DNA from: a virus
Taxonomy: Duplodnaviria; Heunggongvirae; Uroviricota; Caudoviricetes
Direction: 5' to 3' (one strand)
Virus record (IMG/VR): IMGVR_UViG_2802429217_000002
Location: 1 to 25,401 of that record
Length of the DNA: 25,401 bases
The translations under genes were made by a program, and so were the position numbers. The notes under the pieces were generated by a model. The model saw only the letters and a list, made by a program, of their open reading frames with translations, did no database searches and was not told where the DNA came from. Positions 4,112 through 21,027 of the stretch are shown here, piece by piece; within the stretch, counting starts at the first letter, position 1, and each line of letters starts with the position of its first letter.

Positions 4112-4599
4112 TAAGCCCCCACGTAATTCCCTGACAGATACCACTCTTCACCCGATGCAGCGCGCTTGCTGCTTTTCCGTAAGCACCGCTCACGACGCGT
4201 CAGAAAATTGTTTCGTTCTGGCTGGGAGTGGCTTTCACGGAATGCCGCCATCCACACGGTTGCAGCACGACGGTATAAGCCCCTGGACTCCAGTTCTTCC
4301 GCCTGGCGGGTCAGGCACAAAATCACACGGGGATCGTTAGTGCCGACATAGAAATTGCGCACAGGTCTGGTTTCACGAACTGGTTGTGGTTCCGGTTCCT
4401 GCGCTCTCTCAGTCAGGCGCGGGAAATGTCTGCGTGTATCTCCTTCACAACGGTGAGCCACACGCCCACTCTGACGTAACTTGCTTGCTGACTGCAGAAC
4501 GCGCTGCCGTGAGTAACCGGCAAAAGCATCCGCAATATCTCCGGAAGTACAGCCCGGATGGGCTTCAATGAATTTCTGAACGTCATTCAAAAGACTCAT
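4111..4599 (-). CDS. PerC/ANR-family-like regulator domain protein
   Basis: C-terminal segment ESRGLYRRAATVWMAAF...ERNNFLTRRERC resembles PerC/ANR signature; first ATG at 4599 (MSLLND...) with GGGGTGAG SD. Confidence 0.45.
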   Translation of the reverse strand: MSLLNDVQKFIEAHPGCTSGDIADAFAGYSRQRVLQSASKLRQSGRVAHRCEGDTRRHFPRLTERAQEPEPQPVRETRPVRNFYVGTNDPRVILCLTRQAEELESRGLYRRAATVWMAAFRESHSQPERNNFLTRRERCLRKSSKRAASGEEWYLSGNYVGA

Positions 4600-6689: not shown

Positions 6690-6779
6690 ACAATATGTAC
6701 CTCCGGTGTACATATTACATGATTGAAATGAACCTTCAAGATACTTGTACCTTAACGGTACAAGGGTTTTAATTTCGTT
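6690..6779. promoter_or_regulatory. Divergent cro/cI promoter-operator region with TGTACC-type inverted repeats
   Basis: Inverted repeats ATGTAC-N7-GTACAT (6695-6713) and CTTGTACC-ttaac-GGTACAAG (6744-6764); minus-strand promoter candidate -35 TTGAAG / 16 nt / -10 TAATAT (6714-6739). Confidence 0.55.
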
Positions 6780-7454
6780 ATGAAAACAATCCATGACATC
6801 CGGCGGTCTAACGCCAGAAAACTGAGAGATGGTGTTGGCGGGAATTCTTCCTTTGCCACTATGATTGATCGCGAGCCAACCCAGACCAGCAGGTTTATGG
6901 GAGATGGTGCTACTAAAAATATCGGTGACAGCATGGCACGACACATCGAAAAATGTTTCGACCTGCCTGTCGGATGGCTCGATCAAGAACACCAGACAAC
7001 GAACATCACAAAAAAACCTGATGTTTCAATCACTAATAAACAAATCACATTAGTCCCTGTCATATCATGGGTACAGGCCGGAGCATGGAAAGAAGTTGGA
7101 TATTCTGAGGTTGATTTGAGCACAGCAGAAACGTATCCCTGCCCTGTACCCTGTGGGGAAATGACTTATATCTTGCGGGTGATAGGTGATTCAATGATTG
7201 ATGAGTACCGCCCGGGAGACATGATTTTTGTCGATCCTGAAGTACCTGCCTGCCACGGTGACGACGTTATTGCATTGATGCACGATACAGGTGAAACCAC
7301 CTTCAAAAGGTTGATAGAAGATGGGACACAGCGTTATCTCAAAGCGTTAAACCCAAACTGGCCTGAGCCTTACATTAAGATCAACGGTAATTGCTCTATA
7401 ATTGGTACAGTGATTTTCTCAGGAAAACCAAGAAGATACAAAATCAAAGCCTAA
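6780..7454 (+). CDS. Prophage repressor, cI-like, with C-terminal S24 (LexA-like) peptidase domain
   Basis: 224-aa ORF; C-terminal region ...RVIGDSMIDEYRPGDMIFVD...KINGN... typical of S24 autocleaving repressors; divergent from cro. Confidence 0.8.
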   Translation: MKTIHDIRRSNARKLRDGVGGNSSFATMIDREPTQTSRFMGDGATKNIGDSMARHIEKCFDLPVGWLDQEHQTTNITKKPDVSITNKQITLVPVISWVQAGAWKEVGYSEVDLSTAETYPCPVPCGEMTYILRVIGDSMIDEYRPGDMIFVDPEVPACHGDDVIALMHDTGETTFKRLIEDGTQRYLKALNPNWPEPYIKINGNCSIIGTVIFSGKPRRYKIKA

Positions 7455-7465
7455 TCAATGTTTAT

Positions 7466-7490
7466 GAACCTGCTTCGGCAGGTTTTTTTA
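7466..7490 (+). terminator. Rho-independent terminator after cI
   Basis: Hairpin gaacctgc-ttcg-gcaggtt followed by TTTTTTT. Confidence 0.6.
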
Positions 7491-7493
7491 TAC

Positions 7494-7526
7494 TTGACAA
7501 TGTACCTTTGAGATACATAATGTACC
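7494..7526 (+). promoter_or_regulatory. PL-like promoter with operator half-sites
   Basis: -35 TTGACA (7494-7499), 16-nt spacer, -10 CATAAT (7516-7521); TGTACC motif at 7501-7506 and 7521-7526 matches the cro/cI operator motif. Confidence 0.55.
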
Positions 7527-7626
7527 CAAGAGAAACAACGAACAGGCAGGACGCCCACGAAGTAGCCGCCTGGGGCATATGAAGTCCAGGATGATTCGTT
7601 GAGTCATGTTGTGCCACTAGGCACTC

Positions 7627-7923: not shown

Positions 7924-8597
7924 TTTTTTCAGGTAACTCGTCGGCATCGCAGAAACAACAACGCTCGATCATGTTAAAAGCCGATTCGTAGAACTGTTTC
8001 TGCTGAGTGTCGCTGAGACAGGAAAAGAGCGACGTTACGATGTTTTATTAATTACATTATCAAGTTCTTTTTCATCAAAAGTCATTTGATTTTCCTTTTA
8101 TGTATACGCGCTTAAAAGGATACCACCGAGCCTGAAGTGGTGAAAAGACAGGCACATAACAGCTAAGTATTTTCAACCAGAGAGAATCCTTAGCGTTGTG
8201 GTGAATGCGGCTCAGCGCACGCGGGTTAAGGTTGAGGCTGACAGTCGACCTTCTGTGGATACCCACCCGCCTGGTGTGCAACCTTCGCCAGGCACCGGAT
8301 GCACCCGGCACCACAACTTTATGCTGTGTGTAGTCTTGGCGGTACCAGCTTGTACCCTTGCTTCCGGCTGGTACCGTCCTTTTTACAAAACAGAGAAGAG
8401 CATCACCGGACGACGGGCTCATAACCCAATCCATCCGGGCGGCTGCCACCGCAGGTGTTCTTCTCTGTTTTGTGGAGAAACTAACCGCCCCTACGGGGGC
8501 ATTTATGGAAATGTAATTGACTCAATAATCGCCGGACGGTGAGGGCTTCCTTTTACCCGAATTCAGCGCGGTGCAGCGCATATACGTGGAGAACAAA

Positions 8598-9134
8598 ATG
8601 TCATTTATTAAAACTTTTTCCGGGAAGCATTTTTATTATGACAGGATAAATAAAGACGACATCGTTATTAACGATATCGCGGTTTCCCTTTCAAATATCT
8701 GTCGCTTTGCAGGACATCTTTCACACTTCTACAGTGTCGCCCAACATGCGGTGCTTTGCAGCCAGCTGGTGCCACAGGAATTTGCTTTTGAAGCGTTAAT
8801 GCATGATGCAACAGAAGCGTATTGCCAGGACATCCCGGCTCCACTGAAACGCCTTCTTCCTGACTATAAACGGATGGAAGAAAAAATAGACGCCGTAATC
8901 CGTGAGAAATACGGGTTACCCCCGGTTATGAGTACACCCGTGAAATATGCCGATCTCATCATGCTGGCAACCGAACGCCGCGATCTCGGGCTTGATGATG
9001 GCTCTTTCTGGCCTGTGCTGGAAGGTATCCCGGCAACAGAGATGTTCAACGTGATTCCACTGGCTCCAGGCCATGCCTACGGGATGTTTATGGAACGCTT
9101 TAACGAATTATCGGAGTTACGCAAATGCGCATAA
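8598..9134 (+). CDS. yfdR: HD-domain phosphohydrolase, YfdR-like
   Basis: ORF from MSFIKTFSGKHFYY with H...HD metal-binding motifs (LSHFYSVAQHAV, LMHDATEAY); GGAG RBS 6 nt upstream; matches my recollection of E. coli CPS-53 YfdR. Confidence 0.75.
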   Translation: MSFIKTFSGKHFYYDRINKDDIVINDIAVSLSNICRFAGHLSHFYSVAQHAVLCSQLVPQEFAFEALMHDATEAYCQDIPAPLKRLLPDYKRMEEKIDAVIREKYGLPPVMSTPVKYADLIMLATERRDLGLDDGSFWPVLEGIPATEMFNVIPLAPGHAYGMFMERFNELSELRKCA

Positions 9135-20689: not shown

Positions 20690-21027
20690 TGATGACCGTT
20701 CAGCAAACAGCCCCTTTTTCTGGCTTGCTTCTTTTCGCCGTTTCCAGGTATAGTTTTCCCGCTGTCGCAAAATCGGCAGCCGGGCGTAGGAACCCGTGTT
20801 TAACTATGGCGACACCGGACGCGCCTTGCGTCTTTTTTTGTGTCTGTGCCTTGATGCACCCATTCAATACACAGTGGCCTTTTCGCCATTGTGGGTATCG
20901 CGTAATGGTGGCTCAGGCGGGGCAGCCTTCGGGCTGGCCGGTTCTCATAGTTACCGGTATTCCTACCCCCGTCTGGGCTACCACCCATGAGCGTAGGAAC
21001 TCCGATGGTAGCTGTAACCAGCTAACT

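Follow-up and report, generated by a model that had tools for sequence, protein, structure and literature searches.

Positions 8100-8570 of the DNA shown above raise a simple question: does this stretch, which lies between the repressor gene and the early-left genes of a prophage, hold the remains of a protein gene or an RNA that folds? The DNA analysed (the window) is the whole 25,401-nucleotide (nt) stretch of IMG/VR virus record IMGVR_UViG_2802429217_000002, positions 1 to 25,401, and carries a lambdoid prophage of the SfV/e14/ST64B type. The original prediction had described here a G+C-rich, hairpin-dense region with no credible open reading frame (ORF), and had offered both a structured non-coding RNA and a decayed gene as explanations. 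We find the flagged 470 bases to be a chain of conserved folded RNA modules, not a gene remnant; the feature is real, and the structured-RNA reading of it is right. It is not one single RNA, but a mosaic of at least three separable modules, for which we use the names M1 to M4. By sequence and covariation, the mosaic appears to combine divergent relatives of two known kinds of RNA, STnc100/PasD and DicF, with two elements not found in Rfam, M4 and a leader RNA next to the early-left (PL) promoter. With a probability that we put at about 0.55, the stretch is the untranslated folded leader of a CI-repressed PL operon, built from portable RNA modules, in which M2 and M3 would form a small RNA (sRNA) and M4 would be reached by read-through.

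Folding and coding capacity of positions 8100-8570

The G+C content is 0.52-0.55 over 8100-8549 compared with 0.39-0.46 in the flanks, and the plus strand of 8100-8570 folds at -196 kcal/mol compared with -151.5 +/- 6.3 kcal/mol for 100 dinucleotide shuffles, none of which did as well (z -7.08), so that the description of a G+C-rich, hairpin-dense stretch of about 470 bp is borne out. The minus strand folds with z -4.20 relative to its own shuffles. The inverted repeats that had been named are all present, displaced by 1-2 nt from the positions first given for them: CGGTACCAGC/GCTGGTACCG at 8340-8349/8367-8376, CCGG..CCGG at 8295-8298/8305-8308 and GCCCC..GGGGG at 8487-8491/8496-8500. Two larger inverted repeats had not been listed, the longest of all at 8385-8409/8449-8473 and a closing helix at 8195-8203/8309-8317.

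Existing annotation would favour a protein. The region is homologous to 'ymfH' of e14 in Escherichia coli K-12, where the homologue is annotated as an intact gene, YmfH, and the Prokaryotic Genome Annotation Pipeline (PGAP) calls the nearest locus, which is 99.5% identical, a frameshifted hypothetical protein. Nominally, then, there is an intact gene in a related prophage, which the original prediction had named as the observation that would speak for a frameshifted pseudogene; in our judgement this 'ymfH' gene is an artefact of annotation, drawn over an RNA with structure. The two overlapping ORFs called in the window are confirmed, one of 124 aa on the minus strand (8075-8449) and one of 114 aa on the plus strand (8198-8542), and searches of both ORFs and their neighbours against Pfam and NCBIfam gave no family match. 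Nor is a reading frame conserved. The long stop-free frames differ among the window, SfV, e14, ST64B, 118970_sal3, phiNP and mEp460 because frame-shifting insertions and deletions are tolerated, and the 114-aa ORF of the window exists because a private 1-nt deletion and a substitution in one hairpin loop fuse two frames. Codon periodicity is absent, the 60 polymorphic sites among 31 distinct close homologues being split 17/24/19 by codon position, and breaks of homology coincide with the borders of RNA modules, not with those of ORFs or genes. Comparison with homologous prophages, which had been suggested as a check, thus revealed compensatory changes that keep the helices in relatives and no frameshifted coding remnant, the frames themselves differing from one relative to the next. 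A structured non-coding RNA in the early-left region is therefore supported, and a decayed gene is not.

Of 5426 complete E. coli genomes, 3021 carry parts of the region, at a median of 2 places per genome. A stretch found in more than half of these genomes, and known in K-12 as 'YmfH', appears to be RNA and not protein, which affects annotation, y-ome lists and screens that make use of ymfH clones. In one such screen, the K-12 ymfH clone, which covers M2-M4, was reported to trigger RcaT, the toxin of retron-Sen2, when over-expressed (bioRxiv 10.1101/2020.06.22.160242); if ymfH is an RNA, the active agent in that screen may be an RNA.

Modules M2 and M3 and their relatives

A covariance-model scan had also been proposed, and it gave nothing in the flagged region at Rfam gathering thresholds, the sole matches of the window being C4 and IsrK at 20.8-21.0 kb, but it returned two informative sub-threshold matches, to STnc100 and to DicF. 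The STnc100 model (RF02076) matches over its full length (1-206) at 8165-8387, with 29.4 bits (E 2e-4) against a gathering score of 47. This match and covariation together define M2 (8196-8316, plus strand) as a pseudoknotted domain of the STnc100 family. With the family fold derived from approximately 105 distinct copies (pattern scan, one genome per species), all STnc100 helices are present at 8197-8315, and they covary in 54-72 family members. P1 (8197-8203/8309-8315) closes the domain around GUGGUGAAU...CACCAC, and encloses the P2 hairpin (8207-8211/8217-8222), in which there are 12-14 double compensatory changes per pair, and a short helix P3 (about 8223-8225/8266-8268). The strand that follows P3 pairs with the loop of P4 in a pseudoknot, AAGGUUG/CAACCUU (8228-8234/8279-8285), and the P4 hairpin itself (8269-8276/8286-8293) abuts P5 (8295-8298/8305-8308), the family form of which, CCGGGAGGCACCCGG, is nearly invariant and is followed by CACCAC. 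The nested structure of M2 has a covariation score of 0.230, compared with 0.076 +/- 0.008 in shuffled alignments (0/500 as high) and at most 0.148 in slid controls. P4 averages 7.2 bp against 4.5 in shuffles and exists in many sequence variants, and the pseudoknot averages 6.5 bp against 4.6, with complementary variants that include AAGGUUG/CAACCUU, AAGGCUG/CAGCCUU, ACUGGU/ACCAGU and UUUGAUC/GAUCAAA among others. As printed, the Rfam consensus line for STnc100 gives nested pairs only, and the pseudoknot comes from the present analysis. A covarying pseudoknot and near-invariant loops in the core of the family point to a function beyond base pairing.

M2 belongs to a sub-branch of this family with a GCGGC-type P2 (GCGGC..GC.CGC, in contrast to CCCCC..GGGG elsewhere in the family), which includes the window, SfV, e14, ST64B, phiES15 and several species-representative loci. 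No member of the sub-branch reaches the gathering score: all lie at 29-43 bits, with 34-43 bits for the sisters in LAU-OXA, phiES15, SfV, 118970_sal3, ST64B and Qin. The STnc100/PasD family is larger than Rfam-based annotation shows, with a sub-threshold branch in early-left operons that extends to the 5' untranslated region (UTR) of K-12 dicB. The window copy has a further peculiarity in the loop of P5 (8299-8304, within 8296-8304), where GGAUGCA replaces the family form GGGAGGCA through one deletion and one substitution, the stem being kept. This variant is absent from all 5426 complete E. coli genomes, and is thus either a private mutation or a sequencing error.

In canonical copies of STnc100 the domain comes with signals of its own. 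There are 40 upstream regions with a sigma-70 score of at least 8/12, of which 20 have exactly 7 nt between the end of the -10 hexamer and P1 (UGGUG); a terminator lies within 160 nt in 62 of 110 family copies, mostly 20-40 nt after P1. In this arrangement, canonical copies behave as self-contained units. They precede phage holin genes, a sialate esterase gene or, when they have no terminator, genes for KdgM-family porins. The window resembles these units in the full-length model match, the motif GUGGUGAAU, the helices P1, P2, P4 and P5, a total length for M2-M3 of about 190 nt and an intrinsic terminator that begins 24 nt after CACCA, within the family mode. It differs in its damaged P5 loop and in the lack of a promoter of its own, the best sigma-70 candidate for M2 scoring 6/12 and the promoter scan giving no promoter-like site in front of the module (none at 8100-8200), so that an M2 promoter was rejected. 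It differs also in location, as it lies in an early-left leader and not after Q, after stx2 or before holin genes (PMC12711010).

STnc100 and its relative PasD are prophage-encoded, Hfq-dependent sRNAs of Enterobacteria. Two RNAs that belong to the STnc100 family or overlap its members, PasD (PMC8550237; bioRxiv 10.64898/2026.05.13.724894) and EcOnc27 (PMC12711010), are Hfq-bound sRNAs. Elsewhere, in Kosakonia, Klebsiella, Raoultella and Enterobacter, 17 STnc100-type domains precede genes for KdgM-family porins by 80-200 nt with no terminator between (loci L015, L025, L028-L030, L035, L038 and others), which suggests a leader role there. Superficieibacter (L033, L034, L046 and L069) has 2-3 STnc100-type units in tandem, approximately 250 nt apart, most of them with their own terminator. 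Other named RNAs do not coincide with the module: co293/C0293 of e14 is, on the K-12 map, presumably at the icd end of e14 and not at ymfH, and we rejected both PasB, which lies in a structural-gene operon (bioRxiv 10.64898/2026.05.13.724894), and svsR, which lies at the 3' end of cI (PMC12803456).

M3 (8317-8384, plus strand) follows as a DicF-like sRNA 3' module. It consists of a conserved single-stranded stretch, GCUGUGUGUAGUCUU (about 8323-8337), and an intrinsic terminator with stem 8338-8350/8366-8378 and U5 at 8380-8384, the hairpin folding at -23 kcal/mol (z -4.5). The position of the terminator is retained in ST64B, phiES15, phiNP, L160 and L233 with entirely different stems, and the single-stranded stretch is conserved even where the upstream domain or the terminator stem differs, a pattern typical of an sRNA seed with its terminator. 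The DicF model (RF00039) matches at 8325-8379 with 19.4 bits (E 0.15), compared with a gathering score of 48 and with 76.7 bits for genuine dicF. The two resemble one another in further ways: gene maps and operators place both in a repressor-controlled early-left operon, ended by an intrinsic terminator within it; the base of the M3 terminator reads GGCGG...CCGCC before the U-tract, as in DicF; and in some relatives the upstream flanks are homologous, the sequence upstream of the M3 homologue in L220 being homologous to that upstream of K-12 dicF. They differ in the single-stranded stretch, which in M3 is GCUGUGUGUAGUCUU and has no above-random complementarity to ftsZ. A search of the window for targets of this stretch found none beyond the stretch itself.

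In the K-12 Qin prophage, dicF is directly followed by an STnc100-like domain that forms the dicB 5' UTR, so that both types of module recur in repressor-controlled early-left operons. The order is reversed, as the folded domain stands before the sRNA end in the window and after it in Qin. This Qin domain (L237 2933-3142; MG1655 1649432-1649641) begins right after the DicF terminator, belongs to the sub-branch of the window with a sub-threshold 34.4 bits, and has a compensated P5 stem (CCUGG/CCAGG). DicF is made from a polycistronic operon transcript by intrinsic termination together with RNase III and RNase E, through a 190-nt intermediate and with no internal promoter, and longer transcripts that reach dicB were not detected (bioRxiv 10.1101/2023.04.14.536235).

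The PL-like promoter, its leader RNA and modules M4 and M1

A PL-like promoter, TTGACA-16-CATAAT (7494-7521, plus strand; 11/12 in the promoter scan), stands after an S24-family cI-like gene (6780-7454) and its terminator (7466-7485), and is overlapped by two CI operator-like sites (7501-7517 and 7521-7537). Two more such sites lie in the gap between cI and cro (6696-6712 and 6746-6762). The palindrome TGTACC-N5-GGTACA, with up to 2 mismatches, has 5 sites in the window compared with 0.58 expected, and these palindromes would define an OR-like and an OL-like region. The flagged region stands some 600-1000 nt downstream of this promoter. In SfV, e14, ST64B, 118970_sal3, phiES15, phiNP and mEp460 it is always flanked by the repressor gene on one side and the first early-left gene on the other, on the strand of the repressor, and the module order leader-M1-M2-M3-M4-genes is constant over 105 loci. 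We infer that the flagged region is part of the PL transcript, and would be silent in the lysogen and made on induction. This is consistent with the grouping of ymfH with SOS genes in K-12, where it shares one iModulon with ymfJ, xisE and intE and with the SOS genes sulA and recN (PMC12132413).

A folded 5' leader RNA at 7536-7600 (plus strand) would open the PL transcript, and is a candidate cis-acting element. Double compensatory changes are seen at 9 of its 15 predicted pairs, the element exists in 93 distinct variants, and a search of Rfam with 7536-7600 gave no match. It is common to phages with different promoters, operators and immunity regions, including SfV, SfII, SfIV, ST64B, mEp460, mEp237, SPN3UB, Pectobacterium ZF40, Yersinia YeP2, Pantoea AH07 and T5-like Providencia phages, and is unannotated in the phage records listed, except for a few that place a hypothetical protein or a repeat_region over it. 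The terminator inside the operon implies control of read-through, and the leader is a candidate for that role; by analogy with the put RNAs of HK022, cis-acting antiterminators located just past PL and PR that act through the zinc-binding domain of the RNA polymerase beta' subunit, it is possibly an antiterminator. Like put, it stands directly after PL in phages with no obvious N gene, upstream of an in-operon terminator, and the two have the short motifs CGAAC(A/G)G and GGAUGA in common. They differ in that blastn finds no alignable similarity between them and the motifs occupy different structural positions; the likeness to put is one of short motifs, in an RNA with a strongly covarying fold of its own. 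HK639 is absent among the 40 of 49 leader-carrying phage records listed. Together with the M4 hairpin, the PL leader provides a concrete and testable start on how lambdoid phages without N pass in-operon terminators and process their early transcripts.

M4 (8385-8473, plus strand) is an RNA built around a three-way junction, in which a basal stem of about 20 bp meets a variable third hairpin and an apical hairpin, GGGCUCAUAACCC, at 8415-8427. It folds at -47.5 kcal/mol (z -7.1), with double compensatory changes at 10 of 31 pairs (29 variants; one row of the M4 alignment, L002, is mis-specified and is to be disregarded). As the most widespread of the modules it is present at 79 of 105 PL-leader loci, and it comes as near as approximately 280 nt to the PL leader with no other module between. 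The apical hairpin, with three G:C pairs and a CUCAUAA loop, is like that of the initiator transfer RNA (tRNA-fMet): the 14-mer 8414-8427 (CGGGCUCAUAACCC) matches the anticodon stem-loop of E. coli initiator tRNA at 14/14 nt, and M4 aligns to metZ. The CAU triplet is retained in 39 of 40 M4 variants and the full 14-mer in 26 of 40, and 8 of 40 have a U at the equivalent of position 37, where tRNAs carry a purine.

Tops homologous to that of M4 are also found in phages of Klebsiella and in viral contigs, within the tRNA clusters downstream of Q. There they directly follow genuine tRNAs, have an acceptor-like stem and end in an encoded (A/G)CCA. In Klebsiella phage GZ7 (L239 1508-1577) and its counterparts the unit is about 70 nt long and comes immediately behind a tRNA-Asn or tRNA-Arg gene; the others are L238, L247, L249, L267, L269, L273, L274, L276, L281, L293 and L308. 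The unit has a stem GGCCUG/CAGGCC, an ACCA or GCCA end, a long arm with the tRNA-fMet-like CUCAUAA loop and a third, covarying hairpin. ARAGORN finds no tRNA or transfer-messenger RNA (tmRNA) gene in the window, none in the SfV, ST64B and Qin loci, and does not call the Klebsiella unit, and the Rfam tRNA model matches neither that unit nor M4. In contrast to tRNAs, M4 has a three-way and not a four-way junction, has no D or T loops, and in the window stands on a long stem within an mRNA leader, without CCA; identity as a tRNA or tmRNA gene was rejected because there is no detector match and no cloverleaf D and T arms. A second comparison is with the RNase III processing hairpins of the lambda N leader and of T7. 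The basal stem of M4 is like these in being a long, nearly perfect duplex just before the first early-operon gene, and M4 differs from them in its conserved three-way-junction top, which an RNase III site does not need.

M1 (8117-8161, plus strand) is a 45-nt element with two overlapping hairpins, ACCAC/GUGGU and GCCUG/CAGGC, which could form an H-type pseudoknot. Its fold energy is not significant (z -0.77). It is kept in e14, 118970_sal3 and phiES15, and occurs at approximately 95% identity in Klebsiella phages independently of its neighbours. On the minus strand, M1 reads as a terminator-like hairpin and T-run at 8141-8122, a short way upstream of a 16-codon ORF that starts at 8086 and has a good Shine-Dalgarno sequence.

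Readings of the locus and adjacent features

In the reading that we favour, the region would be silent as long as the prophage is repressed, and on induction PL (7494-7521) would transcribe the leader RNA, a small ORF, M1, M2 and M3. Most of these transcripts would end at M3 and, by analogy with DicF, would be trimmed at the 5' end to an M2-M3 sRNA of about 190 nt, laid out like STnc100/PasD and like the 190-nt precursor of DicF, in which a seed-like linker joins a folded domain at the 5' end to a U-tailed terminator. Polymerases that pass the terminator would proceed to M4 and then from yfdR onwards to xis and int. It is plausible that M4 serves as an element for processing by RNase III or RNase P, or for control of translation.

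Several observations weigh against this reading. M2 scores below threshold (29.4 vs 47 bits) and does not have the promoter typical of its family, and with two private changes in a near-invariant P5 loop the window copy may be impaired, and perhaps dead. The DicF score of M3 is weak. The predicted duplex of M3 with the ftsZ start region is no better than with shuffled sequence (fraction as good 0.54, and 0.73 for the seed alone, compared with 0.05 for DicF, in what is a crude test), and targeting of ftsZ by M3 is thus unsupported. The part assigned to the leader in read-through past the M3 terminator is a guess, and it is from sequence and relatives that we infer, at this locus, PL transcription, the choice between termination and read-through, 3' ends, processing, Hfq binding and targets. 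Finally, the near-invariant and elaborate core of M2 and the tRNA-like top of M4 exceed what an sRNA or an RNase III site would need, and the explanation is therefore probably incomplete.

The strongest rival, though an unlikely one, is a purely cis-acting control region of attenuator or riboswitch-like type, in which M2, M4 or both would respond to a ligand, to a protein or to polymerase state and so govern read-through at M3 or translation of the first gene, with no sRNA acting in trans. The near-invariant pseudoknotted core of M2 does resemble ligand- or protein-binding RNAs, and M4 always stands directly before the first early-left gene; M2-type domains also lie 30-50 nt before start codons with no terminator, in K-12 Qin dicB and in L017, L018, L043, L013 and L116, and precede the 17 KdgM-family porin genes. 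However, most canonical copies are units of promoter, domain and terminator, the linker ahead of the terminator shows seed-like conservation although terminator stems vary, and relatives accumulate as Hfq-bound sRNAs with many targets (PMC8550237). A riboswitch-style overlap of terminator and antiterminator, or any alternative pairing of domain and terminator, was not seen by eye in the copies inspected, which was not a systematic search. Rather improbable, in our estimate, is that M4, and perhaps M2, is a tRNA mimic, a copy of the initiator anticodon arm that would serve as a decoy or as processing punctuation by engaging methionyl-tRNA synthetase, RNase P, the 30S P site or an anticodon nuclease from a defence or toxin system. 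The 14-nt identity to tRNA-fMet with its retained CAU argues for this, as do the three-way junction with acceptor-like stem and (A/G)CCA immediately after genuine tRNAs in the late regions of Klebsiella phages and the triggering of the retron-Sen2 toxin by the K-12 ymfH clone (bioRxiv 10.1101/2020.06.22.160242). Set against it are the failure of ARAGORN and of the Rfam tRNA model to recognise M4, the absence of D and T loops, the 8 of 40 variants that break the purine-37 rule, and a window 'acceptor' that is a stem of about 20 bp without CCA. We hold equally doubtful a broader version, in which an undescribed tRNA mimic in M4 (directed at a host factor that recognises tRNAs, as a decoy or as a signal for processing), a protein- or polymerase-binding pseudoknot domain in the STnc100 core, and the PL leader would together form a protein-independent RNA toolkit in phages without N; if it were true, early-left expression of SfV/e14/ST64B-type prophages would be under protein-independent RNA control.

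Two further alternatives we consider very improbable. In one, the functional strand would be the minus strand, from which a leftward antisense RNA ending at the hairpin and T-run at 8141-8122 would oppose early-left expression. That terminator-like site and the better-than-shuffled folding of the minus strand (z -4.2) are in its favour, but the plus strand folds much better (z -7.1), G:U pairs in several conserved helices would become A:C on the opposite strand, the plus strand is the one on which the strong terminator with its U-tract, the matches to STnc100 and DicF and the tRNA-like unit are read, and the promoter scan gave no minus-strand promoter-like site to the right. In the other, the region would be a decayed or frameshifted protein gene, either ymfH-like on the plus strand or the 124-aa ORF on the minus strand. 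Beyond the YmfH and PGAP annotations, this can draw on the short minus-strand ORFs placed here in some phage records and on the long stop-free frames of both strands; against these stand the change of frame among close relatives, the absence of a third-position excess and of any Pfam or NCBIfam family match, and the fact that helices, not codons, guide conservation, with homology breaking at module borders and not at gene borders.

Downstream of M4 lies a G+C hairpin, GCCCC-UAC-GGGGG (8487-8500, plus strand; fold z -2.0), that in SfV and mEp460 stands between yfdQ and yfdR, and of which the ST64B version has a compensated stem. The prophage of the window has neither orf32 nor yfdQ, having a deletion between the hairpin that follows M4 and this one. 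The deletion joint lies between two similar G+C hairpins (window 8487-8498 compared with 2939-2950 and 4243-4254 of SfV, L001), and the same deletion form is also found in other contigs. The first coding gene after the leader is a yfdR-like 5'-deoxynucleotidase gene (8598-9134, plus strand, from the ORF list), and the name given to it in the original prediction agrees with that used by PGAP at the 99.5%-identical locus and with a weak YfbR-like Pfam match (24.3 bits). The above-threshold Rfam matches of the window, on the plus strand at 20761-20838 and 20901-20988, are to IsrK (70.6 bits) and to the C4 antisense RNA (82.3 bits), and lie well outside the prophage arm studied here. IsrK and C4 together form an RNA immunity module of the P1/P7 type, which usually controls an antirepressor.

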